From contig NZ_JAVDPC010000003.1 of assembly GCF_031296915.1 (NCBI RefSeq), forward strand, positions 77,246 to 141,245: a stretch of DNA of 64,000 nt, in the 5' to 3' direction. Origin of the DNA: Cerasicoccus frondis (GTDB lineage: Bacteria; Verrucomicrobiota; Verrucomicrobiia; Opitutales; Cerasicoccaceae). Under the pieces are notes generated by a model that saw nothing but the letters and a program-made list of their open reading frames with translations, was not told where the DNA came from and searched no databases. Below, in pieces: positions 19,552 to 35,685 of this stretch; positions within the stretch are counted from its first letter, which is position 1; the number at the start of each line of letters is the position of its first letter. The translations under genes and the position numbers were made by a program.

Positions 19552-19783
19552 CGGGAGGTAACGTACAAAGGGAAATAAAGTGATCAATAAGACACTAAGA
19601 TTTCAACGCCTGGTCGCAAACAAAAAGTGAACGCACGAGCATTTTATTAGTGAGTGGCTTTCACTAATAATCCGAGCTGGGAATCAACGACTTACGCACG
19701 CGAAAACCGTCGCTGCAGCTGTAGGCAGAGCATCTGAATCGCACTGCATTGGGCGATTCACCTTTTCGTAGAAAAACACTCTT

Positions 19784-20053
19784 TAGAGCACTTTTCATCT
19801 AGATTGGCCGAGTCAGGTGGGTTAGAGATTGGATGCAGCGCAAGGCGGCTTTGATTGAGCGGGCTGGAAGCCCGTGATTGAAATGCCAACGCCGCGAACT
19901 TCCAATCTGTCCCCAAGCCCTAAACCGAGTGCTTTTCCGCGCCAGCGTTGTTGGCTTTTCGCTCACAGGCTTCCAGCCTGCGACGCTTAAGCCGCCTTGC
20001 TGGACACGAAAAATCACTGCGGCCTGATCGGCCAATCTAGATGAAAAGTGCTC
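19784..20053. repeat. MITE-like element bounded by a perfect 27-bp inverted repeat
   Basis: AGAGCACTTTTCATCTAGATTGGCCGA at 19784-19810 and its exact reverse complement at 20027-20053. The interior carries a further inverted repeat (GCTGGAAGCC/GGCTTCCAGC). Confidence 0.6.
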
Positions 20054-20243
20054 TAGCCCCCGAGGGCTGTTCCGTTGACGCGACATTGCGCTTTGGGGCG
20101 CTTTCCGAGAGGTGATGGGCAAAATGAAACCGGCAATCCGAAGATTGCCGGTTCAAAGCTGCGTCGTCGCTGGCAAGGTGGTAAGGACTGGATCGGCTTT
20201 ACCTAACTAACGCAAGATGCCTGACGACGACGCTTGAAAGTGT

Positions 20244-24207: not shown

Positions 24208-24573
24208 TTAAGATTCCCGCTCGCGGCTAATGGCGACAGCGACTTCCCGGAAGTTGCCCGCAATGGGGGCGTTGGGCTTTTTCACTTCGACATCCACGCT
24301 TTGTATGATGGGGAAAATATCCAGAATTTGAGCCGCAATGTGCTCAGCGACGCGCTCGATTAAGTTGTGACTTTCCACCTCCACCACGGTGCGCACGATT
24401 TCAAAAACCTGGGCGTAGTTGACCGTGTGTTCGAGATCATCGCTCAGGCCCGCCGGGCGTAAATCGAGGTGCAGAGTCAGGTCGACATAGAATGGTTGAC
24501 CATCGCGCCTCTCAAAGTCCAGGCAGCCGTGGTAGCCATAAAACGCTAGGTCCCGCAGGTGGATTTTATCCAT
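24208..24573 (-). CDS. folB: Dihydroneopterin aldolase
   Basis: MDKIHLRDLAFYGYHG...EVKKP. ATG at 24573. The longer track ORF contains an unlikely N-terminal extension. Confidence 0.85.
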   Translation of the reverse strand: MDKIHLRDLAFYGYHGCLDFERRDGQPFYVDLTLHLDLRPAGLSDDLEHTVNYAQVFEIVRTVVEVESHNLIERVAEHIAAQILDIFPIIQSVDVEVKKPNAPIAGNFREVAVAISRERES

Positions 24574-25402
24574 GGCGATAAATGGCGTCCGCCATGCGAA
24601 TGGCGCGCAGGTTCGCCTGGACGTCATGGACGCGAATGATGTCAACGCCTTGCTGAACGCCGACGACGCTCGTTGCGATGGTGCCTTCGAGACGTTGGTC
24701 GACTTCGAGGTCCAGCGTTTTGCCAATGACAGATTTACGCGATGCGCCTAGCAGAATCGGAAAGCCAAGGCTGCGCAATTCGCCCAGACGCCGCATGAGC
24801 GTGAGGTTTTGCTCAACGCTTTTGCCAAAGCCGATGCCTGGGTCGAGCACGATATTTGCAGGGGCTACGCCAGCATCCGTTGCGATTTGCACGGATTTTT
24901 CCAGGAAGCGTTTCACTTCGTCTACAATGTCGCCGTCGTAATCGGCGCCCCGAGCATTGTGCATGAGAACCGCGCCGGCGCCGAACTCCGCCACCGTCGC
25001 AGCCATGTCTGGATCGTGTTGGAAGCCCCAAATGTCATTGATGATGTGCGCGCCAGCTTCGAGCGCCTTGCGCGCAACGGAGGCCTTGTAGGTGTCCACC
25101 GAGATGGGCGTTTCGAGCACTTCAAGTAAGGCTTCGAGAATGGGCAGCAGGCGCGCGATTTCCTCGTCGTCCGGGATTACTTCGGCGCCTGGTCGCGTTG
25201 ACTCTGCGCCGACATCGATCAAGTCTGCGCCTTCACGGATCATGGCCTGCGCTTGGCCCAAGGCGTTGATGGGCGATGCGAACTGCCCGCCATCGGAGAA
25301 AGAGTCGGGGGTTACATTGAGGATCCCCATGACGAAGGTGCGCGCGCCCCAAACCGGCGGCGTCCAGCGCTGTCTTATTAAATCAGGCATGTCCATGCTC
25401 AT
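24566..25402 (-). CDS. folP: Dihydropteroate synthase
   Basis: GILNVTPDSFSDGG pterin-binding signature. Start probably MSMDMPD at 25402. Overlaps folB by 8 nt. Confidence 0.85.
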   Translation of the reverse strand: MSMDMPDLIRQRWTPPVWGARTFVMGILNVTPDSFSDGGQFASPINALGQAQAMIREGADLIDVGAESTRPGAEVIPDDEEIARLLPILEALLEVLETPISVDTYKASVARKALEAGAHIINDIWGFQHDPDMAATVAEFGAGAVLMHNARGADYDGDIVDEVKRFLEKSVQIATDAGVAPANIVLDPGIGFGKSVEQNLTLMRRLGELRSLGFPILLGASRKSVIGKTLDLEVDQRLEGTIATSVVGVQQGVDIIRVHDVQANLRAIRMADAIYRHG

Positions 25403-26153
25403 TGTCGTGCCAGTGGTTGAGCGTCCAAGCGGAAATCGCGTGTACCGTGCCCGCCATGACCACACCCAGCATGGCCGCCAAGATGCACAGCGCCGCGACG
25501 CCAGCGTAATTCTGGGCGGCGTAGTATTCGCCTAAAAGCCTGCCTAAGCCGGGTTTGCTGGCGAGCAGACCAGATAGGTAGTCCGTTACCAGGGCAGCCA
25601 TTGGCGCGTAGATTGCGGCGCGCTTAATGGCTGTCATCAGTTGGGGAAGGGCATGCGGGAGGCGCAGCAGGGCGATTTCCTGCCAATAGCTGGCCCGGTA
25701 GGTCTTAAATAGGTCGAGAAGGGATTTATCCGTGGCCATGAGCGCGGGTGTCGCCACTGAAATGACCGGAAAAAAGCAGGCCGCAGTCGTCACCACCAGT
25801 AAGGTCATGAAGCTGGACAGTGGGCTGACTATGATCAGAGGCGCCAGGGCAATGATGGGCGCCATACGACCGATCATCATCCACGGAGCTAAGGCCAGGC
25901 GGAGGCCTTGATAGGTGACGAGTGCGATGGAGCAAAGAACGCCCAGCGCTGCGGCGAAGATGAAGCCGAGAAACATGGCGGCGGCGTCCACGCTTAACGC
26001 GGAGAATAAGGCCCCGCGATCCGCCCAAAAGGCATGGGCAGTGCTCAAGGGACTCGGCATGTGGGTGATCTCATTGGTCATCAAGGATAGGCACGCCCAG
26101 ATGATGATCGCGATCCCCGCAACTACGAATGGCAAAATAAACTTCACGCTCAT
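25383..26153 (-). CDS. ABC transporter permease (NitT/TauT family)
   Basis: Six TM helices and an EAA-like loop. Start codon overlaps the ATPase stop (ATGA). Confidence 0.8.
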   Translation of the reverse strand: MSVKFILPFVVAGIAIIIWACLSLMTNEITHMPSPLSTAHAFWADRGALFSALSVDAAAMFLGFIFAAALGVLCSIALVTYQGLRLALAPWMMIGRMAPIIALAPLIIVSPLSSFMTLLVVTTAACFFPVISVATPALMATDKSLLDLFKTYRASYWQEIALLRLPHALPQLMTAIKRAAIYAPMAALVTDYLSGLLASKPGLGRLLGEYYAAQNYAGVAALCILAAMLGVVMAGTVHAISAWTLNHWHDNEHGHA

Positions 26154-26920
26154 GCTTTTTTGGCGGCCTCCTGAACCTTGCTAAGGGCGTTACGGACTTG
26201 ATTGGACGCTTCCTGAAAGAGATCACTTTCACGCCAGGAGAGTTTTCGGGGGTAAGGTTCAGGCACGTCTATGATTTCAGCAATGCGACCAGGGTTCGAC
26301 GCCAAGACGATGACTTTATTGGCTAGAAAAACCGCTTCTGCTACCGAGTGAGTGACCAGGCAGCCCGTGAAGTGACGTTTCTGGCGCACTTTGAGCAGAT
26401 CGACGCAAAGCTTATTGCGTGTGATGGCGTCTAGTGCGGCAAAAGGCTCATCAAGCAGCAAACAATGGGGCTTGGTGATCAGCCCGCGAGCCAAGGCCGT
26501 GCGGACTTTCATGCCGGGAGTCAGTTGAAGCGGGAAGCGATTGCTGATATGGTTGATGTCCCACAGCTTGAGCACATCCTTCGTCTGCTCCGCAACTGCC
26601 TCCTTGTTTTCGCCGTGGAGGCGGAGGGGGAGGCCAACGTTACTTTCCGCCGTTCTCCAGGGCAGCAGCGCGTATTCCTGGAAGATAAATGACGTGCGCT
26701 GGTGGATATTTTCGTCGTTGGCGTGAGTAATTTGACCAGAAGATAGTGGGGTGAGGTCAGCAATTAAGCGCAAAATGGTGGATTTGCCGCAGCCACGAGG
26801 GCCAATGAAGGCAACAAAATCCTCGTTTTGGATATCTAAAGAGAAATTTTCCAAGACGGCGTTGCCGTTGGCATAACGTTTGCTAACGTTTTCAATTCGC
26901 AGTTGTGGCTCAGTCGTCAT
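26150..26920 (-). CDS. ABC transporter ATP-binding protein (NitT/TauT family)
   Basis: Walker A GPRGCGKST, signature motif and Walker B LLLDEPFAALD. Likely start MTTEPQL at 26920. Confidence 0.85.
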   Translation of the reverse strand: MTTEPQLRIENVSKRYANGNAVLENFSLDIQNEDFVAFIGPRGCGKSTILRLIADLTPLSSGQITHANDENIHQRTSFIFQEYALLPWRTAESNVGLPLRLHGENKEAVAEQTKDVLKLWDINHISNRFPLQLTPGMKVRTALARGLITKPHCLLLDEPFAALDAITRNKLCVDLLKVRQKRHFTGCLVTHSVAEAVFLANKVIVLASNPGRIAEIIDVPEPYPRKLSWRESDLFQEASNQVRNALSKVQEAAKKA

Positions 26921-27469
26921 TAGCGAACAGGATGCATAAGTTTCTGTGTAGCAGTCGGCAAGGCGTAACGGCGCGAACCTTAGCATTAGTTGTTCCCAAT
27001 GCAACGCTTAGGTGAAGATTCCCGAAATCACTTGATTTCGACCCGGGATTAACTTTCCTGCAACCACTTTTATGAAAAACACAACCATACAGTCCACCAC
27101 CACCGTCGTCAGAAACGCTGGCGCTGCGAAGCGCTTCTTTAGCGTGGCATGGCAGGTGACCCGACGTATGGGCGTCCTGTGTTGGGCGATCGCGGTTGCC
27201 GTAATCAATTTGGGAGACGCTTAGGCCATTCTGGCATTTGCGTTATTCGGCGGTTGACTCAAGAAGCCTGTTGGTTTCTAACAATATTTTTCACGAACAA
27301 TGATCACGCGACTCACAGTCATATTATGCCGACAGGGCAGTCATGAGGATTTCTCAAAGAATCCACAATGGATTGGCTATGGCTCCATGGGCCGAGGGCC
27401 GCGTGTGTCCACTGAACGACTAACGCATTTTTGCGATCGATAGAAGTTTACTACGAACACATTCGTTTG

Positions 27470-27503
27470 GCCCGGTTAGCTCAATCTGCTTCCGGGCTTT
27501 TTT
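27470..27503 (+). terminator. Orphan intrinsic terminator on the + strand (GCCCGG...CCGGGC + T6)
   Basis: Hairpin plus T-run with no annotated + strand gene upstream. Possible sRNA 3' end. Confidence 0.4.
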
Positions 27504-27612
27504 GTGCGCTGCTGATGGCGCTGACCTACCGCAACCGGTTAGTTAGCCGCCCGGGCGGAGCTTGAAATATTGATACATAAAAATAAAAAATAAAAAAATA
27601 TAATATTTAAAT

Positions 27613-27831
27613 TTGACAGAGCAATTAACTTCGGAAATTATTCCGAGCATCAACCAACTAAACGACATGCACCTGATTAACCACATACCAAACTGCTCCG
27701 AGCGACTCGGTGACTTAGGCATTAATACCGCCTATGGGTCACAGACGAGTTGGGCAGATTTTCGCCAAATGGCGAGAGGGTGCGCTTCACCCAAACCGCG
27801 AAAGAGCGGTTGTCGGTTTACTAAGGATTAA
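27613..27831 (+). CDS. Small hypothetical protein (72 aa) with a strong AT-rich promoter-like region upstream and an intrinsic terminator downstream
   Basis: Extremely AT-rich stretch at 27566-27612 (AAAAATAAAAAATAAAAAAATATAATATTTAAATTTGACA). ORF followed by the hairpin at 27861-27905. Confidence 0.35.
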   Translation: MTEQLTSEIIPSINQLNDMHLINHIPNCSERLGDLGINTAYGSQTSWADFRQMARGCASPKPRKSGCRFTKD

Positions 27832-27860
27832 CCGAAATGAGTTATCAAATAACCAGTGAA

Positions 27861-27905
27861 GCCCGAGTCGCCCTCCAATCAAGCACTCGGGCCTTTTTGT
27901 TTTTA
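27861..27905 (+). terminator. Intrinsic terminator (GCCCGAGT...ACTCGGGC + T-run)
   Basis: 8-bp stem followed by CTTTTTGTTTTT. Confidence 0.55.
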
Positions 27906-28100
27906 CAGCATTTAAAGCAACAGTTGAACGGCGCCCTGGCCGCCTTATGTCAGGTAGAACGTCTCGTAAATGGCGTCCAAACCGCGATACCGGCCACTCC
28001 CGGAAATCGCGAGAGGGGCGAAACAGCAGTGCTTTATCTATAAATCAAAGCTGGGCATCGCCCCAGCAATCGGACGCGAAACCGCGTCTTTTAAATTCAA

Positions 28101-28135
28101 CCGTCGGCGCGCTATGCCCGGCGGTTCACTTTTTT
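28101..28135 (+). terminator. Hairpin plus T-run immediately upstream of tRNA-Trp
   Basis: CCGTCGG...CCGGCGG stem followed by TTCACTTTTTT. Confidence 0.4.
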
Positions 28136-28140
28136 GCAAT

Positions 28141-28214
28141 AGGAAGGTGGTGTAACGACAACATGCGAGTCTCCAAAACTTGAGCCGAGGGTTTGACTCC
28201 TTCTCTTCCTGCCA
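28141..28214 (+). tRNA. tRNA-Trp (CCA)
   Basis: 74 nt. Acceptor AGGAAGG/TCTTCCT (one G-U). Anticodon arm CGAGT-CTCCAAA-ACTTG. T arm GAGGG-TTTGACT-CCTTC, with a T at the position of the usual T-loop C56. Encoded CCA. Confidence 0.6.
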
Positions 28215-28267
28215 CCAAAGCGCAGCTTTGGAAACTGGATGCTGTCGCATCCAACTTTCTCTTTTGT

Positions 28268-28343
28268 TCGGCGGTAGTTCAATTGGTAGAACCCCTCCCT
28301 GTTAAGGAGGCAGTTACAGGTTCGAAGCCTGTCCACCGAGCCA
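28268..28343 (+). tRNA. tRNA-Asn (GTT)
   Basis: Canonical cloverleaf. D arm GTTCAATTGGTAGAAC, anticodon loop CTGTTAA, T loop TTCGAAG, encoded CCA. Closely resembles bacterial tRNA-Asn. Confidence 0.8.
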
Positions 28344-28389
28344 CCAAGGCTTCGCCTTGGAACCGAGAAACTGCGTGTCTCATTTTTTC
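28344..28389 (+). repeat. tRNA-associated tandem-hairpin repeat, copy a
   Basis: CCAAGG-CTTCG-CCTTGG, then AACCGAG, then GAGAAAC-TGC-GTGTCTC, then ATTTTTT. Confidence 0.6.
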
Positions 28390-28443
28390 GCGCTTCGGCA
28401 TGCCTTCGGTCAGCCCTGTCCACCAATTTCATAAACGCCTGAG

Positions 28444-28505
28444 TGCATGATAAACGCGCCGCGTTTCTATAATTAACGAATGGCTGCTACTGAGATACAA
28501 TGATC
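28444..28505 (+). promoter_or_regulatory. Repeated promoter-like element, copy 1
   Basis: CATGATAAACG...TCTATAATTAACG...TACTGAGA, with a TATAAT -10-like hexamer. A near copy lies at 29973-30040. Confidence 0.4.
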
Positions 28506-28615
28506 TCCGAAGCCATCACTATTACCTTAAAGGGAAGATGCCGCCGTCTGTGTTGGAACACCAGGAAATGGCCCTCTGCTAGGATGCGGAGAAAACCAGA
28601 CGGCGGCGCAATTTT

Positions 28616-28653
28616 CCAAGGCAAGCCTTGGAACCGAGATGCTGCGCATCTCA
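28616..28653 (+). repeat. tRNA-associated tandem-hairpin repeat, copy b
   Basis: CCAAGG-CAAG-CCTTGG, AACCGAG, GAGATGC-TGC-GCATCTC, A. Sits immediately 5' of tRNA-Ser. Confidence 0.6.
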
Positions 28654-28661
28654 CATTCTAC

Positions 28662-28750
28662 AGAGGATGCTGCGTAGTGGGTTGCGACGCCGCTTGCTAA
28701 GCCGCCGATTCCCCGTGGGGAATGTGGTTCGATTCCACCGTCCTCTGCCA
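28662..28750 (+). tRNA. tRNA-Ser (GCT), class II
   Basis: 89 nt. Long variable arm TTCCC-CGTG-GGGAA. Anticodon loop TTGCTAA, with a C-C mismatch in the anticodon stem. Acceptor AGAGGAT/GTCCTCT. Encoded CCA. Confidence 0.6.
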
Positions 28751-28762
28751 ACTTTCTATTCT

Positions 28763-28838
28763 GGCCAAGTAGCCCAACGGCAGAGGCATCGGTCTTAAGA
28801 ACCGTAATGTGTGGGTTCGAATCCCTCCTTGGTTACCA
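28763..28838 (+). tRNA. tRNA with a Leu anticodon (TAA) but class I (short variable arm) architecture
   Basis: 76 nt. Anticodon arm TCGGT-CTTAAGA-ACCGT. T arm GTGGG-TTCGAAT-CCCTC. Discriminator A73. Encoded CCA. Confidence 0.5.
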
Positions 28839-28864
28839 ACTTTACGTTGCAACGAGATTGGATT

Positions 28865-28940
28865 GGGCGGGCATGTGCCATGGAGGCGACAGTGCTTTGC
28901 AAGCATCGTGCGGCGGGTTCGATTCCCGTACCGTCCACCA
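28865..28940 (+). tRNA. tRNA-Ala (TGC)
   Basis: Anticodon loop TTTGCAA. A G3-U70 wobble pair, the Ala identity element, is present. The D arm is poorly formed by eye. Encoded CCA. Confidence 0.6.
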
Positions 28941-28956
28941 ATTTTATTTACTGCAT

Positions 28957-29030
28957 GGTGATGTAGCTCAATGGCAGAGCAACCGGCCGATAACCGGTCG
29001 ACCCTGGTTCGATTCCCGGCATCACTACCA
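28957..29030 (+). tRNA. tRNA-Ile (GAT) with C33
   Basis: Canonical D arm GCTCAATGGCAGAGC. Perfect anticodon stem ACCGG/CCGGT with loop CCGATAA, so C where U33 is expected. Encoded CCA. Confidence 0.65.
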
Positions 29031-29084
29031 GCAGGGCTGGTCATAAATTCCGCGTACCGCAATCCGCGTACCGCAATTTCTTTT

Positions 29085-29157
29085 GCCTCCTTAGTTCAAT
29101 GGTAGAACAGCCGGTTTTGCCCGGTTGACCGTGGTTCGATTCCATGCGGGGGCGCCA
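29085..29157 (+). tRNA. tRNA-like gene with a 6-nt anticodon loop (TTTTGC); identity undetermined (Lys/Gln-like)
   Basis: Good acceptor, D arm (GTTCAATGGTAGAAC) and T arm. The anticodon stem CCGG/CCGG leaves only a 6-nt loop. Encoded CCA. Possibly a pseudogene. Confidence 0.4.
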
Positions 29158-29161
29158 ATTT

Positions 29162-29258
29162 CGTAGAGTGCGCGAGTATGGCTAAAGCGACTTGGCTTGG
29201 AACCAAGTGAATTGCCCCGTTGGCCGTTCCGTGGGTTCGAATCCCACCTCTGCGACCA
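29162..29258 (+). tRNA. Class II-like (long variable arm) tRNA carrying a UGG (Pro) anticodon
   Basis: 97 nt. Acceptor CGTAGAG/CTCTGCG. Leu-like D arm. Anticodon arm CTTGG-CTTGGAA-CCAAG. 23-nt variable arm with a hairpin. T arm GTGGG-TTCGAAT-CCCAC. A73. Encoded CCA. Confidence 0.4.
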
Positions 29259-29295
29259 AGTTTCTAAATATGCTTTGCATTGCAAAGCTTCTGAT

Positions 29296-29371
29296 GGGCT
29301 CATGGTGAAAGCGAAGATCATGCAAGGGCGCGAACCTTGCGTTGGAGGTTTGAGTCCTCCTGAGCCTACCA
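29296..29371 (+). tRNA. tRNA-Arg (GCG) with C33 and T-loop TTTGAGT
   Basis: Perfect anticodon stem CAAGG/CCTTG with loop GCGCGAA. Acceptor GGGCTCA/TGAGCCT. Encoded CCA. Confidence 0.55.
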
Positions 29372-29411
29372 GCAGGGCAATGCCCTGCACCCGAGATACT
29401 GGCGTATCTCA
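29369..29411 (+). repeat. tRNA-associated tandem-hairpin repeat, copy e (variant)
   Basis: CAGGGC-AAT-GCCCTG, ACCCGAG, GAGATAC-TGGC-GTATCTC, A, followed by a T-rich run. Confidence 0.5.
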
Positions 29412-29426
29412 TATTCTTTCTTAACT

Positions 29427-29504
29427 GCAGGTGCGTGGCCCAAGGGGCAGGGGCATCAGGTTGTGAGCCTGGGGAAGTGGGTTCGAATCCCACCCACCTG
29501 ACCA
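29427..29504 (+). tRNA. tRNA-His (GTG) with a G-1 extension
   Basis: Anticodon arm TCAGG-TTGTGAG-CCTGG. An extra 5' G precedes the acceptor stem. Encoded CCA. Confidence 0.6.
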
Positions 29505-29507
29505 CCG

Positions 29508-29547
29508 CCAAGGCTACGTCTTGGAACCGAGATGCTGCCGCATCTCA
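29508..29547 (+). repeat. tRNA-associated tandem-hairpin repeat, copy c
   Basis: CCAAG-GCTACGT-CTTGG, AACCGAG, GAGATGC-TGCC-GCATCTC, A. Confidence 0.6.
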
Positions 29548-29590
29548 TGGCTTCGCGATTAGTCATGCGCTCTTCGTAACTCCCTTTCAT

Positions 29591-29662
29591 CGCAGAGTAG
29601 CTCAACGGATAGAGCTCCGGTCTCATACGCCGGCGGTACGGGTTCGATTCCCGTCTCTGCAA
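29591..29662 (+). tRNA. tRNA-Met (CAT), initiator-like (C1-A72 mismatch), without an encoded CCA
   Basis: Acceptor CGCAGAG/CTCTGCA with the terminal C-A mismatch seen in bacterial tRNA-fMet. Anticodon arm CCGGT-CTCATAC-GCCGG. A73 is followed by CTG, not CCA. Confidence 0.6.
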
Positions 29663-29669
29663 CTGTTTC

Positions 29670-29744
29670 GGGTGCATCGTCCAGCGGCTAGGACAACGCA
29701 TTGTCTATGCGAAAACGCCGGTTCGATTCCGGCTGTGCCCGCCA
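29670..29744 (+). tRNA. tRNA-Asp (GTC)
   Basis: D arm GTCC-AGCGGCTA-GGAC. Anticodon loop TTGTCTA. T arm GCCGG-TTCGATT-CCGGC. Encoded CCA. Confidence 0.7.
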
Positions 29745-29752
29745 TTTTAATT

Positions 29753-29827
29753 TACGGGATAGTGTAGTCGGTAACACCGCAGATTTTGAATCTGCTATCG
29801 GAGGTTCAAACCCTTCTCCCGTAGCCA
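29753..29827 (+). tRNA. tRNA-Gln (TTG)
   Basis: Perfect acceptor TACGGGA/TCCCGTA, D arm GTGT/ACAC and anticodon arm GCAGA-TTTTGAA-TCTGC. Encoded CCA. Confidence 0.8.
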
Positions 29828-29865
29828 AAGCAAGCTTGGAACGGAGTTGCTGAGCATCTCATTTT
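29825..29865 (+). repeat. tRNA-associated tandem-hairpin repeat, copy d
   Basis: CCAAAG-CAAG-CTTGG, AACGGAG, GAGTTGC-TGA-GCATCTC, ATTTT. Confidence 0.55.
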
Positions 29866-29884
29866 GCCATCTCAATTTTTCTCT

Positions 29885-29960
29885 GGCGCTGAACCCCAAT
29901 GGCGAGGGCGCGGGCCTGCAAAGTCCGCTCTATCGGGTTCGAATCCCGGCGGCGCCTCCA
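29885..29960 (+). tRNA. tRNA-Cys (GCA)
   Basis: Anticodon arm CGGGC-CTGCAAA-GTCCG. Discriminator U73, the Cys identity element. Encoded CCA. Confidence 0.75.
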
Positions 29961-29972
29961 ATATTTCAGCGA

Positions 29973-30040
29973 CCATGATAAACGAAGTGCGATTCTGTAA
30001 TTAACCTCGTCCTTTCGAAATATTATACTGAGAGCATGAA
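29973..30040 (+). promoter_or_regulatory. Repeated promoter-like element, copy 2, at the start of a ~500-bp AT-rich spacer inside the tRNA array
   Basis: CATGATAAACG...TCTGTAATTAACC...TACTGAGA parallels copy 1. Confidence 0.35.
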
Positions 30041-30508
30041 ACATTCTAACTAAAATAAAGACTAAACAGCGTAACTAACGATCCGCCATGATATACAAAC
30101 TGTATTCAAAATTAGCTGATAATCCGGAAAAGATTTTAAAGGAGTTTAGGCTCAGAGTGAACTTTTCTGGAGACAGGTGATAAACTAATACACGAAATTA
30201 TGACATCGCCAATTATTGTAAGCGAAACGAGATATGATTCGTCTTCAGCGGGCTCAGACATGATCAGAATCGGGACCAGTCCATTCTTTTAAAACCCATC
30301 TCGTGGTATCATTCAATTCTCGGCTCATGAGTAATTTTTGCATTCCGCCAATCACATGAATTTCTGCGCGCTCAATCGAACGTTCGGTTAGCGCGCTCAT
30401 AACCCTTTCCACGTCGGTCGACGGCGGCGTCTTGCGTCCATTTTGATGGTCTTGCGATTCGCCGTTCCGTTTCAGGCAGTCTAAGCGACGTGAGAAACAT
30501 AGACATCT

Positions 30509-30583
30509 GAGGATATAGCTCAGTGGTAGAGCAGCTCGCCGTAAGCGAGTAAGTCGGCGGTTCGATTCCGCTTATCTTCGCCA
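30509..30583 (+). tRNA. tRNA with a Tyr anticodon (GTA), class I architecture and C33
   Basis: Canonical D arm GCTCAGTGGTAGAGC. Anticodon arm GCTCG-CCGTAAG-CGAGT. Short variable loop (bacterial tRNA-Tyr is normally class II). Encoded CCA. Confidence 0.5.
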
Positions 30584-30586
30584 AGA

Positions 30587-30658
30587 GAACTGTTAGCTCA
30601 GTTGGTAGAGCAGTGGATCGAAAATCCATTAGTCTCGGGTTCGATTCCCGAACAGCAA
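30587..30658 (+). tRNA. tRNA-Phe (GAA)-like with C33 and a degenerate 3' acceptor strand; abuts tRNA-Thr; probable pseudogene
   Basis: The body closely matches bacterial tRNA-Phe (AGCTCAGTTGGTAGAGC; anticodon loop TCGAAAA). The 3' strand ACAGCAA pairs with only 4 of 7 acceptor positions. No CCA. Confidence 0.45.
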
Positions 30659-30660
30659 TC

Positions 30661-30738
30661 GGAAAAGTAGTGCAGTCAGGTTAGCGCACTGGTCTTGTAA
30701 ACCAGAGGTCGAGGGTTCGAATCCCTCCTTATCCACCA
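30661..30738 (+). tRNA. tRNA-Thr (TGT)
   Basis: Anticodon arm CTGGT-CTTGTAA-ACCAG. T arm GAGGG-TTCGAAT-CCCTC. Encoded CCA. Confidence 0.75.
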
Positions 30739-31115
30739 AAGGAAGTCACGGTTAAGACTTAAAAAATGCCACTAGCATAGGGTGCTAGCAATGCCAGTAC
30801 GAGAGGAACGCAAAGCAAAAACAAAAGCCCAAGGGGAGCCTTGGCATTTCGTGAAAGCCCGGCGCGGATTGTTTAGCAATAGGCAGTTTCGCGCCAGCGC
30901 CGCGGCCGCTTGTGTCGGCGTGGATACCGGTTGCTACTTGACTGGGCAAGACGGCGGTGCATACCGCGCACGTTGGGTATGGATGCGATTGAGGCGAACC
31001 TGAGGCAGCTTCTTTCGTGGAAATACTCTGCGTTGCAAAGTATGCGCCAAAGTCGCGCTCAGCCAACTGGCTTCCTTAAGCGCGGACCCGCGAGTCCGCC
31101 GCGTGGCTGATCGAT

Positions 31116-32759
31116 TTGTCCAACTCCCCGCGGGCCCATTTTCTTTTTAACCTAAGTGCAGACGCATGGCTGAGCGTGACCCCGGAAGGTTACGGCTGCG
31201 TGCGTTGTGTGCTTCTTCTGAAACCTCAACCCAACACGAACATGATCCCGATCAAATATGTGAACATTCCGTATGAGCACTTTGGTCTCGTTTACCGTGA
31301 CGGACGTTTCGTGAAGCTGCTGAAGCCGGGTCGCACCTGGTACTTCGATCCACTCTGGCGAGTGTCCATCGGCAAGCTCTGGCAGGGCAAGCCGTGGATC
31401 GAAATGCCGGCGACGCAGCTGCGTCAGCTTCGCGAATCTCCCGCCATTCAAGAGCACGCAGCGTTCATAGACCTGAAGGATACGCAGCGCGCGCTCGTTT
31501 GGCTGGACGGCCGTTTCCACGGCATCCTCGAGCCGGGGCTCTACGCCTACTGGAAAACCGTCGTTGAAGTCCGCGTGGAAATCATGGATGTGCGCAACAT
31601 CCTGTTCCGCCACGACGAAGCCGACGTCATCCTCAAGACCGCTGTGGCCAAGCGTTACCTAGACGTTTACGAAACTGCCGAAAACCTCGGCAGCGTAGTT
31701 TACGTGGACGGACGCTTTCACGGCGTTTACGGTCCGGGAACCATTGGCTACTGGAAGAACGGTCTGACCGTTCGCCGTGAGTCCTTTGCGCTCCCGTGGC
31801 TACCGATGCACGACAACGAACTCGAAAAGCTCCGTGAAGACGGTCAGCTCGACGCGTTCGCATCCTTCGTCGATGTTCAGGACAACCAGCGCGCACTGGT
31901 GTGGTTTAACGGCCGCTTCCATTGCATTCTGGGGCCGGGCCTCTACGCCTACCTAAAGGAAGGGCATGAGGCCCGCGTCAACCTGATCGACGCGACGATG
32001 CCGCAGTTCATCTACGATGAGCTCGACGTCATCTTTAAGCACGCCGAGGCGCTTCGCCAGCTCGCGGTTTACGAAATCGGAGACAACGAGCAGGGCGTGC
32101 TTTACCAGGATGGGAAGTTCACTGAACTTCTCTCCCCGGGCCGCTACGCGTTCTGGAAGGATGTGGGCAACGTCCGCGTCCGCCAATACGATCTGCGTGA
32201 GCAAGTCCTCGACGTGAGCGGGCAGGAAATAATGACGGCAGACAAGGTAACCCTGCGTCTGAACGCCGTGCTGACCTACCGCATCGTCGATGTCCGCAAG
32301 GCAGCTGAAACCGTGAAGGACGCCGAACAGGCGCTCTACCGTGAGCTTCAACTGATCATCCGTGCGGAAGTCGGCGGCCGCACCCTCGACCAATTGCTGA
32401 CGGACAAGACTGCGGTGGCGCACGACGCCCTGAAGTCTATCCAGCAAAAGGCCGAAGGCTACGGTCTCGCAGTCAAGGGGCTGGGTATCCGCGATGTCAT
32501 CCTGCCGGGTGACATGAAGGAGCTCCTGAACCAAGTCATCGAAGCCGAAAAGGCCGCCCAAGCCAACGTCATCAAACGCCGCGAAGAAACGGCCGCCATG
32601 CGCAGCCAGCTCAACACGGCCAAGATGATCGAAGACAACCCGACGCTCCTGCGCCTGCGAGAGCTCGAGACGGTCGAAAAGATCGCTGAAAAGTCGAACC
32701 TGCAAATCTTCGTTGGGGATGGGCAGGGGCTCACCAAGAGCATTGTCAAACTAGTCTAA
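31116..32759 (+). CDS. SPFH/Band-7 domain protein with five N-terminal tandem ~35-aa repeats (DGRF...PG.YA.WK)
   Basis: C-terminal half carries an SPFH domain plus coiled coil (...VTLRLNAVLTYRIVD...IRDVILPGDMKE...). The N-terminal half has 5 repeats of Y.DGRFhg.L.PG.Y.YWK...VR. No TM helix found. An alternative start is at 31242 (MIPIKY). Confidence 0.65.
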   Translation: MSNSPRAHFLFNLSADAWLSVTPEGYGCVRCVLLLKPQPNTNMIPIKYVNIPYEHFGLVYRDGRFVKLLKPGRTWYFDPLWRVSIGKLWQGKPWIEMPATQLRQLRESPAIQEHAAFIDLKDTQRALVWLDGRFHGILEPGLYAYWKTVVEVRVEIMDVRNILFRHDEADVILKTAVAKRYLDVYETAENLGSVVYVDGRFHGVYGPGTIGYWKNGLTVRRESFALPWLPMHDNELEKLREDGQLDAFASFVDVQDNQRALVWFNGRFHCILGPGLYAYLKEGHEARVNLIDATMPQFIYDELDVIFKHAEALRQLAVYEIGDNEQGVLYQDGKFTELLSPGRYAFWKDVGNVRVRQYDLREQVLDVSGQEIMTADKVTLRLNAVLTYRIVDVRKAAETVKDAEQALYRELQLIIRAEVGGRTLDQLLTDKTAVAHDALKSIQQKAEGYGLAVKGLGIRDVILPGDMKELLNQVIEAEKAAQANVIKRREETAAMRSQLNTAKMIEDNPTLLRLRELETVEKIAEKSNLQIFVGDGQGLTKSIVKLV

Positions 32760-32810
32760 CTCAGTCCCGGAGGGCCAACGACTCCGGGGCTTTATTTTTC
32801 ATATAACGCC

Positions 32811-33173
32811 ATGCTTGAAATTTACACCGCAAAAATTAACTTTGTGGGGCAAAGTAATCGCCCCCTCATGTCGAAGAAAATCGTTGAAGATCTTGCCTGC
32901 TCGCTCTGCGGTCGCGCCACACCGGCTAAGCATGCCGAGAAACATCACCTAGTGCCGCGATCCAAGGGCGGGACGGACACCATTGATGTTTGCCGAAACT
33001 GCGGCGACCAGGTCCATAAGCTTTTTTCGAATAACGAACTTCGCGACGAATACAACACGCTGGAGAAGCTGCGAACCGCACCGGGAATGGAGAAATGGAT
33101 CCGCTGGGTGCGCAAGCAGGATAGCTTCACCTTCTCGATGAAGTCGCCCAAGGGCCGACGCTCGGACAAGTAG
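32811..33173 (+). CDS. Small HNH endonuclease
   Basis: CSLCG...HHLVPRSKGG...CRNCGDQVH fits the HNH zinc-finger nuclease pattern. Possible start at 32868. Confidence 0.7.
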   Translation: MLEIYTAKINFVGQSNRPLMSKKIVEDLACSLCGRATPAKHAEKHHLVPRSKGGTDTIDVCRNCGDQVHKLFSNNELRDEYNTLEKLRTAPGMEKWIRWVRKQDSFTFSMKSPKGRRSDK

Positions 33174-33275
33174 CCGCGGGCATTCATTTTTTAATCAATG
33201 CAGGTAGTCCATTTGCGGGCTGCCTGTTTTACTTTGCAATACAAAGCTTTACTGCGCTGGGAGGCGCACCTAGTT

Positions 33276-34274
33276 ATGAATACCGAAGAACTGCGCCTGA
33301 TTCGGGATTGTTTACCCGAGGGGCGCACCAAGTATTATTACTTCAAAGACGCTTATCTATTCCAGATACTCAAGTGGAAACTGGGCGAGGCGCAGGCCAC
33401 GGCTTCTTCGCTCAAACAACACGCGCAATGGCAACGCTTCGCCAAGAAGGAAGCCTTCGCGCGTTACCTGTCGAAGTGGCCCGATGGCTTGGTCGATGGC
33501 GAGCGCTTGGGCTACTATTGGCCGAGTGATCAGGAGGTGCATGCGTTCCGTTTAACATTGGGCGAGTGGGGGCAGGAGCCGAGCAATCAGAACGATTCCT
33601 GGTTTCAGACTTCGCGTTCCGGCTGGAACCTCGTGCTTCAGCTGAACTTTCCCGCCGAGCATGACCGCGAATACCGCAACCTGGTTGGTCCGGATGGAGG
33701 CAGCTACTTCGCGTGGACGTTTCACCCGGTGCGCGTGGGCCAGTTTAATACGCTGGCTTGGGCGCGTCTGGATATCGACCTTGATCGCGGCGTGGCCTTG
33801 ATTGAGGAAATTCAAACCGACTGGCTACGCGAGGCTGCGGATCAACGTAGTCACTTGGCTAAGGAACTGAAGCGCGGTCAGCTGAAGCTCGATGACCGCT
33901 GGTGGCAGTCCACCGTGGGGAACGTGATCAGCTACTTCGATCGCAACCTCGAGCCCTTGCTCGATGTGTGGGACGAGGCCATGTTGTCGGCGGCCCTGTG
34001 GTTCCTCTACAAGGAGCTCGGCGTTTCGCGGGTGTATTATCACACGTGGGAGTCGGGGCTGCTCTACAAGCAGTTGACGGAAGACAGCGCGCCGCCGCGT
34101 TCACTCTACACCAAGCTGCCGAAACGATTCGGTTTTGAAAAGGTGGAGATGGGCCCAAGTTTCCTCGACGAGGCGCAGAAGTCTCGCCGTTTCTGGAAGC
34201 GGCGCAAGGACAAGCGAACCACCGCAGCCTGGTGGCGTCTGGACCTGGAGCCCGCCATTCAATTCGCCAAATAG
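33276..34274 (+). CDS. Hypothetical protein (333 aa), unknown function
   Basis: ATG at 33276 is preceded by GGGAGG at an RBS-appropriate distance. No motif recognized. Confidence 0.5.
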   Translation: MNTEELRLIRDCLPEGRTKYYYFKDAYLFQILKWKLGEAQATASSLKQHAQWQRFAKKEAFARYLSKWPDGLVDGERLGYYWPSDQEVHAFRLTLGEWGQEPSNQNDSWFQTSRSGWNLVLQLNFPAEHDREYRNLVGPDGGSYFAWTFHPVRVGQFNTLAWARLDIDLDRGVALIEEIQTDWLREAADQRSHLAKELKRGQLKLDDRWWQSTVGNVISYFDRNLEPLLDVWDEAMLSAALWFLYKELGVSRVYYHTWESGLLYKQLTEDSAPPRSLYTKLPKRFGFEKVEMGPSFLDEAQKSRRFWKRRKDKRTTAAWWRLDLEPAIQFAK

Positions 34275-34295
34275 GCATAGTGAAAAGGGGAAAAG

Positions 34296-34335
34296 GGCGG
34301 CCCGGCCTTTTTGGTTGGCCGGGCCGCCTATCATT
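34296..34335. terminator. Bidirectional-looking terminator hairpin (12-bp perfect stem GGCGGCCCGGCC) with flanking T-run
   Basis: GGCGGCCCGGCC-TTTTTGGTT-GGCCGGGCCGCC followed by TATCATTTTT. Confidence 0.6.
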
Positions 34336-34503
34336 TTTAGCTGAAGGCATCCTCTCCGCATCCTGCGCCGTTCGACTGTTGCTGCCCAATTATTGCCGGG
34401 AGCATAAAAGCTGTTGAGTGGTTTGCTTCCATGGCAAAGCGCATTATAGCTTTGCGTGGACATGCATCGGTGTGTCATGGATTAATCCCTCTCCAGTCTT
34501 GTT

Positions 34504-35685
34504 ATGCATTATCGACGATTTGGCCGAACTGAAATTCAAATGCCCGTAATCACTGCCGGTGGCATGCGCTACCAACAGTCATGGGACGACATTCCTGCGG
34601 ACAAAATTAAGGCGGAGGAGCAGGAGCGCATCACGAGCTGCATCCACCGTGCACTCGAATTGGGAATTAACCACATCGAAACGGCGCGTGGCTATGGCAG
34701 TTCGGAAGTGCAGTTGAAGCGTGTATTCAAAGACATTCCACGCGAAAAATATATTTTGCAGAGCAAGGTGGCGCCGCAGGAAGACCCGAAGAAGTTTGAA
34801 GAGATTCTGGAAAATACCTTCGACCGATTGGGCTGTGAATATTTGGACCTGTTTGGCTTCCATGGCATCAACTTGGACAAAATTCTCGACTGGACCGTTC
34901 GCAAGGGCGGCTGCATGGAGGTCGCGCGTCGCTGGCAAAAAGACGGCCGCATCAAGCACATTGGTTTTTCCACCCACGCGCCTTGCGACGTCATCGTCCG
35001 CGCGGCCGAGACGGGTGAGTTCGATTACGTGAACCTGCACTGGTATTTCATCAACCAGACAAACTGGGCCGCTGTTGAGGCAGCGACCAAGCAGGACATG
35101 GGCGTCTTCATCATCAGCCCGAACGACAAGGGCGGTCAGCTTTTTAACCCGCCGCAGAAGCTGGTGGACTTGTGCGATCCGCTGACGCCGATGGGCTTCA
35201 ACACGCTTTTCTGCCTGCGTCGTCCGGAGGTGCACACGCTAAGCGTAGGCGTGGCGCAGCCGGATCAATTTGACCCGCAGATCGACGCGCTCGAACACTA
35301 CGACAACATCGATGCGACCATTGCGCCGATCGAGCAGCGGATCAACGACGCCATTGCCGCCGAGCTGGGCGCCGATTGGTGGCCGAGCTATGTCGAGGGT
35401 TTGCCGAGTTATTTAGACGCTCCGGGCGAAGTGAACCTGCAATACATTCTGCGGCTTTGGACGCTGGCCAAGGGCCTCGATATGGATGGCTACGGCAAAT
35501 ACCGCTATGGCATGCTTGGCAATGGCGACCACTGGATGGGTGGCCAGAAAGCAACCGACTTTAAAGACGAAGACGTCATCAATGCGGTCAATGGCCACCC
35601 GTTTGCCGAAAAAATTCCAGGGATCCTGCGCGAAGCACACGAAATGTTTAAGGGCGAGGAGCGTAAGCGCCTCTCCAGCGCTTAG
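34504..35685 (+). CDS. Aldo/keto reductase family protein
   Basis: GINHIETARGYGSSE and the overall AKR pattern. Confidence 0.8.
   Translation: MHYRRFGRTEIQMPVITAGGMRYQQSWDDIPADKIKAEEQERITSCIHRALELGINHIETARGYGSSEVQLKRVFKDIPREKYILQSKVAPQEDPKKFEEILENTFDRLGCEYLDLFGFHGINLDKILDWTVRKGGCMEVARRWQKDGRIKHIGFSTHAPCDVIVRAAETGEFDYVNLHWYFINQTNWAAVEAATKQDMGVFIISPNDKGGQLFNPPQKLVDLCDPLTPMGFNTLFCLRRPEVHTLSVGVAQPDQFDPQIDALEHYDNIDATIAPIEQRINDAIAAELGADWWPSYVEGLPSYLDAPGEVNLQYILRLWTLAKGLDMDGYGKYRYGMLGNGDHWMGGQKATDFKDEDVINAVNGHPFAEKIPGILREAHEMFKGEERKRLSSA

Follow-up and report, generated by a model that had tools for sequence, protein, structure and literature searches.

A tRNA gene array of Cerasicoccus frondis linked to a soluble Band-7 gene and flanked by two apparently undescribed structured RNAs

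Two described systems come closest to the locus reported here. The first, an RtcB-linked system composed of a Band-7 protein and the so-called b7a-tRNA ('band 7-associated tRNA'), was predicted by Burroughs and Aravind in 2016 and had not yet been validated, according to the passage of the YrlA preprint (bioRxiv 10.1101/312249) that mentions it. The second is the long tRNA gene array (L-array), recognized by many tRNA genes in the same orientation at a density of at least 2 per kb, and by at least 20 genes in the definition of Tran et al. Cyanobacterial L-arrays are linked to HNH and rtcB genes and are induced by translational stress, and L-arrays had already been noted in Verrucomicrobia and Planctomycetes (PMC8421152). 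'Degenerate tRNA gene clusters' of Planctomycetes are treated as horizontally acquired and dispensable in the passages of PMC4807772 that deal with them. Long tRNA arrays have so far been regarded as cargo that is imported and cryptic, and repair by Band-7/tRNA/RtcB as an untested prediction; our literature search found no paper joining 'tRNA array' and 'SPFH'. Here, we analysed a tRNA gene array of Cerasicoccus frondis (Verrucomicrobiota; Opitutales) that lies upstream of a Band-7 gene in a 64,000-nt stretch of contig NZ_JAVDPC010000003.1 (assembly GCF_031296915.1, positions 77,246 to 141,245), referred to below as the window; coordinates are those of the window unless a related locus (L number) is named. 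Long tRNA arrays and the Band-7/tRNA/RtcB system appear to be one module described in two literatures, a connection that appears to be new.

The array extends over 2598 nt (28141-30738) and comprises 17 genes for tRNAs on the + strand, as called by ARAGORN. We put forward, with about even confidence, that it is an expanded module of the Band-7/tRNA/RtcB type acting in translational-stress or RNA-damage responses. The protein genes of this module in the window are the following:

31242-32759, + strand: soluble SPFH/Band-7 ('slipin family') protein of 505 amino acids, likely start at 31242
32811-33173, + strand: small HNH nuclease-like protein of 120 amino acids (Pfam HNH_5, 7.5e-7; HNH, 4.5e-5)
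33276-34274, + strand: protein X, 332 amino acids, GNAT-like fold, no Pfam family; a conserved neighbour of RtcB in other phyla

The evidence that carries the proposal is the linkage of such arrays to Band-7 genes across genomes. Relatives of the Band-7 protein were sought in one genome per species, which gave 80 loci, and linkage was counted on the 71 of them with at least 1 kb of upstream DNA. Within 7 kb 5' of the Band-7 gene, 60 of these 71 loci had at least one tRNA gene on the same strand, 41 had at least three and 24 at least ten, with a maximum of 39, against a chance expectation of a few percent. The last tRNA ends about 320-800 nt 5' of the Band-7 gene, and 660 tRNA genes in all lie upstream of Band-7 homologues. 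The loci belong mostly to Verrucomicrobiota and Planctomycetota and are scattered in other phyla; the module was present in all nine Verrucomicrobiota relatives recovered (L001-L009). An HNH gene of about 200 amino acids occurs in 22 loci, within or beside the array in 20 of them, and RtcB is encoded near the Band-7 gene, mostly directly 3', in 10 of the 80. Protein X is found in several Verrucomicrobiota Band-7 loci and adjoins RtcB in Gammaproteobacteria, while in Tunicatimonas (Bacteroidota) the gene order is tRNA-Asn, Band_7, X, DinB, RtcB. An earlier note on this DNA overlooked the coupling of the array both to the Band-7 gene and to a pair of conserved structured RNAs, the first of which precedes the array:

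27566-27612, + strand: extremely AT-rich, UP-element-like stretch (4.3% GC), mostly kept in C. maritimus
27613-27641, + strand: promoter-like site TTGACA-17-AATTAT, the top sigma-70-like match in the region (10/12), a consensus match only
27648-28140, + strand: structured non-coding array leader, folding at -175.7 kcal/mol (z -5.1)
27856-28030, + strand: conserved core of the array leader, with hairpin P1 at 27861-27893 (terminator-like, U run) followed by helices P2-P5

Between 27648 and 28043, identity to the sister species C. maritimus (L001) is 94-96%, compared with 76-80% for the surrounding sequence, and the substitutions in the leader follow no coding pattern. An open reading frame of 68 codons (27837-28043) was rejected as a gene, with 5 non-synonymous and 2 synonymous changes, as in the other two frames. 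The core precedes the first tRNA in 10 of 10 Opitutia loci, with 94% of its cells paired and compensatory changes at 10 pairs, which none of 500 shuffles matched. A covariance model of the core (R1) gave one match per Opitutia locus, at 103-176 bits, and nowhere else. As to an occurrence of the leader in Planctomycetota or elsewhere in the window, R1 returned only weak, short matches and the idea was dropped. Such weak matches (E 0.005-0.3) were seen at L086 4401-4496 and L084 4654-4696, directly 5' of rtcB in two Gammaproteobacteria, and at L014 5188-5279, directly 5' of a Planctomycetota array; these three may be mere terminator-like hairpins.

The earlier note had called the AT-rich stretch promoter-like. 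Its extreme composition was confirmed, and the promoter-like site and then the conserved leader lie directly 3' of it; as judged from sequence, the stretch, which lies 530 nt 5' of the first tRNA, is plausibly part of a promoter. On its 5' side, a conserved terminator-like hairpin on the + strand (27465-27510; GCCCGG...CCGGGC followed by a T run) sits in a block that is 90% identical to C. maritimus and hints at a further small RNA transcribed from the interval that separates the ABC transporter operon from the array.

The second structured RNA lies between the array and the Band-7 gene:

30827-31135, + strand: rod-shaped structured RNA of about 310 nt, with the invariant bulge GGAUACC at 30922-30928

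Of the 47 pairs of this rod RNA, 30 show compensatory changes; pairing reached 90.6%, compared with 74% in shuffles, and the covariation score 0.50, compared with 0.19. The leaders of Planctomycetota Band-7 genes have a similar rod fold and carry the 10-mer GUGGAUACCG, which was found 5' of the Band-7 gene in 39 of 78 loci; the number expected was 0.009. Homology of the rod RNA across phyla is probable; it rests on GUGGAUACCG and the fold, because a sequence-only hidden Markov model reached only one well-placed match in Planctomycetota, L066, the second (L058) being weak and about 1 kb 5' of the gene. The element that comes last before the Band-7 leader in Planctomycetota is tRNA-like, matches RF00005 at positions 5-66 only, and has an Asn(GUU)-like anticodon loop and no acceptor stem (L020 9477-9540, L033 9509-9572, L046 9355-9417, L067 3347-3412). 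Neither the rod RNA nor the array leader gave an Rfam match at E <= 1 (region 26900-31300). A T-box riboswitch (RF00230, UGGN bulge) was considered for the rod RNA and rejected, as there was no Rfam match, the bulge reads GGAUACC and the preceding base is variable. The array is flanked by two apparently undescribed structured RNAs.

The genes that close the array are the following:

30509-30583, + strand: tRNA-Tyr(GUA), first of the terminal triplet (ARAGORN)
30588-30658, + strand: tRNA-Phe(GAA), the middle member (ARAGORN)
30661-30738, + strand: tRNA-Thr(UGU), the last member (ARAGORN)

This triplet ends 503 nt 5' of the Band-7 gene. The last two or three tRNAs are tightly grouped in Opitutia loci, and a spacer of 250-640 nt precedes the group in 7 of the 10, the window included. 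The middle member is orthologous across 9 loci, with 96.6% of cells paired and compensatory changes in 8 of 20 pairs; it lacks an encoded CCA, and its anticodon is GAA, CAU, UAU, AUU or CUG depending on the genome. The comparison indicates that its structure is under selection and that its decoding identity is not fixed. A conserved tRNA that changes its anticodon between genera appears to be new.

Compensatory changes in the terminal tRNA, the array leader and the Band-7 leader RNA reveal functional constraint, which we count in favour of the expanded module. They bear also on a doubtful but serious contender, according to which the array is mostly selfish or decaying DNA, with tRNA genes piling up beside one functional Band-7-associated tRNA through recombination and HNH homing, from which the cell would gain little. 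The degenerate clusters described in the PMC4807772 passages fit this idea, as do hybrid and truncated tRNAs, a content that differs between sister species, odd anticodons, linked HNH genes and the moderate Rfam scores. However, an array leader with compensatory changes is kept at the 5' end of every Opitutia array, the cloverleafs are upheld by compensatory changes, the CCA is kept in 15 of 17 genes, and arrays persist at the Band-7 locus across two phyla.

The remaining 14 genes, each called by ARAGORN, are as follows:

28141-28214, + strand: tRNA-Trp(CCA), CCA encoded, RF00005 46.7 bits; not called in C. maritimus
28268-28343, + strand: tRNA-Asn(GUU), CCA encoded, RF00005 59.9 bits
28662-28750, + strand: tRNA-Ser(GCU), 8-bp acceptor and 4-bp T stem, CCA encoded
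28763-28838, + strand: tRNA with Leu anticodon UAA, 76 nt, class-I, CCA encoded, also found with RF00005
28865-28940, + strand: tRNA-Ala(UGC), G3-U70, CCA encoded, called by ARAGORN only
28957-29030, + strand: tRNA-Ile(GAU), CCA encoded, RF00005 61.1 bits
29085-29157, + strand: tRNA-like gene with a 6-nt anticodon loop, CCA encoded, RF00005 48.6 bits
29162-29258, + strand: class-II tRNA with Pro anticodon UGG and A73, 97 nt, CCA encoded, also found with RF00005
29296-29371, + strand: tRNA-Arg(GCG), CCA encoded, 41.9 bits in Rfam with laxer filters
29428-29504, + strand: tRNA-His(GUG), CCA encoded, RF00005 40.7 bits
29591-29663, + strand: tRNA-Met(CAU), C1xA72 mismatch, no CCA, RF00005 62.9 bits
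29670-29744, + strand: tRNA-Asp(GUC), CCA encoded, also found with RF00005
29753-29827, + strand: tRNA-Gln(UUG), CCA encoded, also found with RF00005
29885-29960, + strand: tRNA-Cys(GCA), U73, CCA encoded, also found with RF00005

The dense array of about 17 tRNA genes described in the earlier note was thereby recovered, at 6.5 genes per kb: Rfam RF00005 backs 14 of the 17 at its gathering score and 15 with laxer filters, with moderate scores of 40-69 bits. Its observations that nearly all genes encode the CCA (15 of 17, the exceptions being Met and Phe) and that no protein gene lies within the block also hold, since the open reading frames in the array, the spacer and the leaders look spurious and none is gene-like. 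The identity elements it listed are present for Ala (G3-U70), Cys (U73) and Met (C1xA72); G-1 of tRNA-His is unsupported because the base at -1 would oppose A73.

Several members are structurally non-canonical, as the earlier note had suspected for 'Leu', 'Tyr' and 'Pro'. The Leu(UAA) gene lacks the long variable arm of bacterial tRNA-Leu, and the Tyr(GUA) gene is a class-I tRNA of 75 nt. The top Rfam match of the Ser(GCU) gene is tRNA-Sec, at 39 bits and below its threshold of 47; the stem lengths of this gene recall tRNA-Sec or 'allo-tRNA' shapes. In three genera, a Pro anticodon, UGG or CGG, is borne by a tRNA of 97-98 nt whose Leu/Ser-like body has A73 and a long variable arm, the counterparts of the 97-nt Pro(UGG) gene being L002 5107-5204 and L003 8981-9077. 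If such a tRNA were charged by LeuRS or SerRS, Pro codons would be misread. Among Band-7-linked arrays, we also noted A-first anticodons, a rarity among bacteria (Asp AUC, Asn AUU, His AUG, Ile AAU, Pro AGG, Leu AAG, Gly ACC, Val AAC), one UUA 'stop' anticodon and several anticodon loops of 6 or 8 nt; these come from related loci L004, L005-L009, L032, L055 and others.

With ARAGORN, no tRNA gene was found in the remainder of the window, and no Gly, Val, Lys or Glu tRNA in the array, where Leu, Ser and Arg are represented by a single isoacceptor each. These gaps make it extremely improbable that this is the main housekeeping tRNA cluster of the organism, a view to which the single orientation, the mostly good folds and several kept identity elements would lend themselves; eight of the genes are absent from the locus of the sister species, and the Leu, Tyr and Pro members are non-canonical.

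The array is flanked by ordinary genes of bacteria. To the left of it lie, on the - strand, folP, an ABC transporter and an MFS transporter, and to the right the Band-7, HNH and protein X genes, an aldo-keto reductase, GH1 and LacI. C. maritimus is syntenic with 24229-35685 of the window on both sides of the array, sharing folP and the ABC transporter on the left and Band-7, HNH, X and the aldo-keto reductase on the right; identity is 78% in the left flank as against 92-96% from the leader to the aldo-keto reductase. Its array holds nine intact tRNAs and a truncated one. Trp, Ser, Leu, Ala, Ile, the Pro-like gene and intact Tyr and Phe (eight genes) are missing at its locus: the block from Ser to the gene with the 6-nt loop is absent, as is the Pro-like gene, and Tyr and Phe are fused. 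The differences between the two species are deletions and fusions with end points in the T or D arms. On sequence comparison, the array is orthologous, yet quickly remodelled by recombination between tRNA genes. Since Trp, Ile, Ala, Tyr and Phe tRNAs are absent at the C. maritimus locus, they must be encoded elsewhere in that species. Because Gly, Val, Lys and Glu are missing here and C. maritimus must encode its lost tRNAs elsewhere, the array is probably supernumerary in C. frondis.

In the earlier note, the block was taken for a horizontally acquired tRNA island resembling the mobile tRNA arrays and phage tRNA clusters of other bacteria. That it is a supernumerary, non-housekeeping kind of array agrees with its incomplete set, its content differing from that of the sister species and its non-canonical members. 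A recent horizontal acquisition is another matter, because the orthologous array of C. maritimus stands in the same syntenic chromosomal context, a finding that the note itself had named as refuting its view, and for this genome the reading as an island or phage cluster is for the most part mistaken. Recent acquisition of a mobile or phage-derived island would be suggested by the AT-rich patches, the high tRNA density, the nearby HNH gene, the Band-7-linked arrays in distant phyla, and the rise in identity to C. maritimus from the left flank to the segment between leader and aldo-keto reductase. One IMG/VR contig carries 36 tRNAs with HNH and Band-7. However, the Band-7 homologue was found on only 3 of 2.9 million IMG/VR viral contigs, a megablast of 26-32 kb gave no match among 50,697 phage records, the flanks contain no integrase or phage gene (their PHROGs matches are generic), the GC content of the array is unremarkable (51%, compared with 54.5% for the window), and the module occurs in all nine recovered Verrucomicrobiota relatives. 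We therefore regard such an island as very unlikely. In C. maritimus, the interval from the last tRNA to the Band-7 gene contains an insertion (L001 9689-9964) that is 89% identical, in inverted orientation on the opposite strand, to a sequence of about 275 nt at 19783-20057 of the window, 8 kb left of the array; this may be a small mobile repeat.

The Band-7 protein matches Pfam Band_7 at 1.4e-32, and its relatives are named 'slipin family protein' by NCBI. It has no hydrophobic segment (maximum hydropathy 0.82) and contains a 67-amino-acid motif five times, the fifth copy opening the SPFH domain. In the AlphaFold2 (AF2) model (pLDDT 85.8), four five-stranded beta repeats at the N-terminus are followed by the SPFH domain and a helix of 60 residues. 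In the model, the protein has the architecture of the major vault protein, with beta repeats, an SPFH-like shoulder and a cap helix. A Pfam search at E <= 1 returned Band_7 and Band_7_1 (0.093, below cut-off) and neither a Vault repeat nor an MVP shoulder. The HNH protein also matches NCBIfam HlpB at 3e-19, below cut-off, and has only the catalytic motif in common with the array-embedded HNH proteins of Planctomycetota. The latter, of about 200 amino acids (L014 8542-9177 and 21 other loci), match IscB and Cas9d HNH models at E of about 3e-15, far below cut-offs. Protein X is 100% identical to a protein of Cerasicoccus frondis, by which the window is placed in Verrucomicrobiota, Opitutia. The family of protein X numbers about 900 proteins, corresponds to no Pfam family and adjoins RtcB in several phyla (L084, L085, L086); protein X may be an uncharacterised RtcB cofactor or tRNA-modifying enzyme. 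A defence system was considered and rejected, PADLOC matches of the Band-7, HNH and X proteins being marginal only.

The modelled architecture brings in an alternative that we consider unlikely, namely that the tRNA-shaped transcripts and the rod RNA are non-decoding partners (cargo, baits or cofactors) of a soluble, vault-like Band-7 cage. This ribonucleoprotein, comparable to vault and vault RNA or to Ro60 and Y RNA, would capture tRNA-targeting nucleases or present broken tRNAs to RtcB. A more specific proposal, which we hold to be quite unlikely, is that the Band-7 cage, the rod RNA and the array transcripts form a ribonucleoprotein for tRNA surveillance and repair, in which tRNAs with changeable anticodons counter anticodon nucleases as baits or spares, and tRNA status is sensed by the two structured RNAs. 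A Band-7 cage ribonucleoprotein, if real, would correspond in prokaryotes to vault or Ro-Y RNA particles.

The comparisons above show that the genes are linked, that the RNAs are structured and conserved and that the array is remodelled. The module runs in the order putative promoter, structured leader RNA, tRNA array, rod RNA, soluble Band-7/SPFH protein, HNH protein and GNAT-like protein X, followed in relatives by RtcB, and a single b7a-tRNA would have expanded into a long array of supernumerary tRNA genes, of the L-array type. For this expanded module, we infer expression, regulation, aminoacylation and protein-RNA contact as follows. Transcription would start at the site at 27613, perhaps also at internal repeat sites, and yield one precursor or a small number of them; the leader would gate expression, and RNase P and 3' nucleases would process the precursor into products that need no CCA addition, because the CCA is encoded. 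When translation is under stress or tRNA-cutting toxins attack, replacement or nuclease-resistant tRNAs would come from the array, and the Band-7 protein, as a ring- or cage-forming scaffold, would handle damaged tRNAs together with protein X and an RtcB encoded elsewhere. We put the fast change of the array down to recombination of conserved tRNA arms with one another and possibly also to gene conversion driven by HNH.

Several observations weigh against this proposal. Three terminator-like hairpins separate the putative promoter from the first tRNA; tblastn found no RtcB in the 64-kb window; and redundancy is deduced from the incomplete set and the sister species. Moreover, one tRNA of the array has an anticodon loop of 6 nt, the 'Leu' and 'Tyr' are class-I and the 'Pro' is class-II, and related arrays contain A34 anticodons, which are rare in bacteria. 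Such non-canonical members and anticodons are no less in keeping with decay, or with a role other than decoding, than with a backup pool of tRNAs.

Other elements lie within the array:

28446-28501, + strand: copy 1 of the repeat CATGATAAACG..TTCTATAATTAAC, with promoter-like site TTAACG-17-TACAAT; one of a paralogous pair
28478-28662, + strand: structured non-tRNA element of 185 nt with a double-hairpin repeat at its end, -71.3 kcal/mol (z -5.0)
28213-29872, + strand: span with six double-hairpin repeats of about 45 nt, from fold and sequence comparison
29961-30508, + strand: AT-rich spacer, 42% GC (core 37%), with repeat copy 2 at 29974-30005 and a promoter-like site at 30001-30029

The spacer corresponds to the AT-rich interval that, according to the earlier note, splits the block, and is now delimited. 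Both copies of the CATGATAAACG..TTCTATAATTAAC repeat (28446 and 29974) are kept in C. maritimus, where the element at 28478-28662 is 94% identical; this element has no Rfam match. The double-hairpin copies lie at 28213-28258, 28342-28388, 28614-28659, 29370-29416, 29506-29552 and 29826-29872; five of the six fold as two 7-bp hairpins, with compensatory differences among copies. A genome-wide REP-like element was rejected as an explanation, since nhmmer found copies confined to the arrays of C. frondis and C. maritimus.

The locus suggests that long tRNA arrays and the Band-7/tRNA/RtcB system are identical throughout a superphylum. It offers handles in a cultivable bacterium, namely two apparently new structured RNAs strongly backed by compensatory changes, a vault-like soluble Band-7 protein and an anticodon-changing tRNA, and it makes testable both the purpose of supernumerary tRNA arrays and the role of soluble SPFH proteins.

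Compared with the Band-7/b7a-tRNA/RtcB system, as far as the preprint passage describes it, the locus has the same Band-7 gene with adjacent tRNA genes, and RtcB is nearby in relatives. It differs in carrying 17 tRNA genes (up to 39 in relatives) where that system has one, in having the RtcB-associated protein X and no RtcB in the window, and in adding HNH, the GNAT-like protein X and two structured RNAs. With L-arrays it shares dense, probably supernumerary tRNA genes on one strand, insertions, deletions and duplications, and linkage to HNH and, in relatives, rtcB; it agrees with them in density and in the working sense of PMC8421152, although its 17 genes fall below the 20-gene threshold of Tran et al. 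As regards the patchiness of L-arrays, the array here is orthologous in C. maritimus, present in the nine Verrucomicrobiota relatives and scattered in other phyla. Unlike L-arrays, it is anchored to a Band-7 gene, and its regulator would be a structured leader RNA, whereas Anabaena has 9-nt promoter repeats. The degenerate tRNA clusters of Planctomycetes are probably the same arrays as those of L010-L080, including the tRNA-Ile(UAU) on record for the clusters; the PMC4807772 passages on them are silent on the Band-7 gene, on HNH and on the leader RNAs.

The rsr-yrlBA-rtcBA operon likewise combines a scaffold protein gene, adjacent tRNA-like RNA genes and the RtcB ligase, an architecture suggestive of a ribonucleoprotein that assists RNA repair. 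Its scaffold is TROVE/Ro60 instead of Band-7, and it has one Y RNA with an embedded tRNA-like domain in place of full tRNAs and a separate rod RNA. The eukaryotic vault differs in having nine repeats, compared with four in the Band-7 protein, which has no Pfam Vault repeat match; known bacterial homologues of vault proteins are in other phyla. Like the vault protein, the Band-7 protein is soluble and, in the model, combines beta repeats at the N-terminus with an SPFH-like domain and a long helix; small structured RNAs are encoded next to it.

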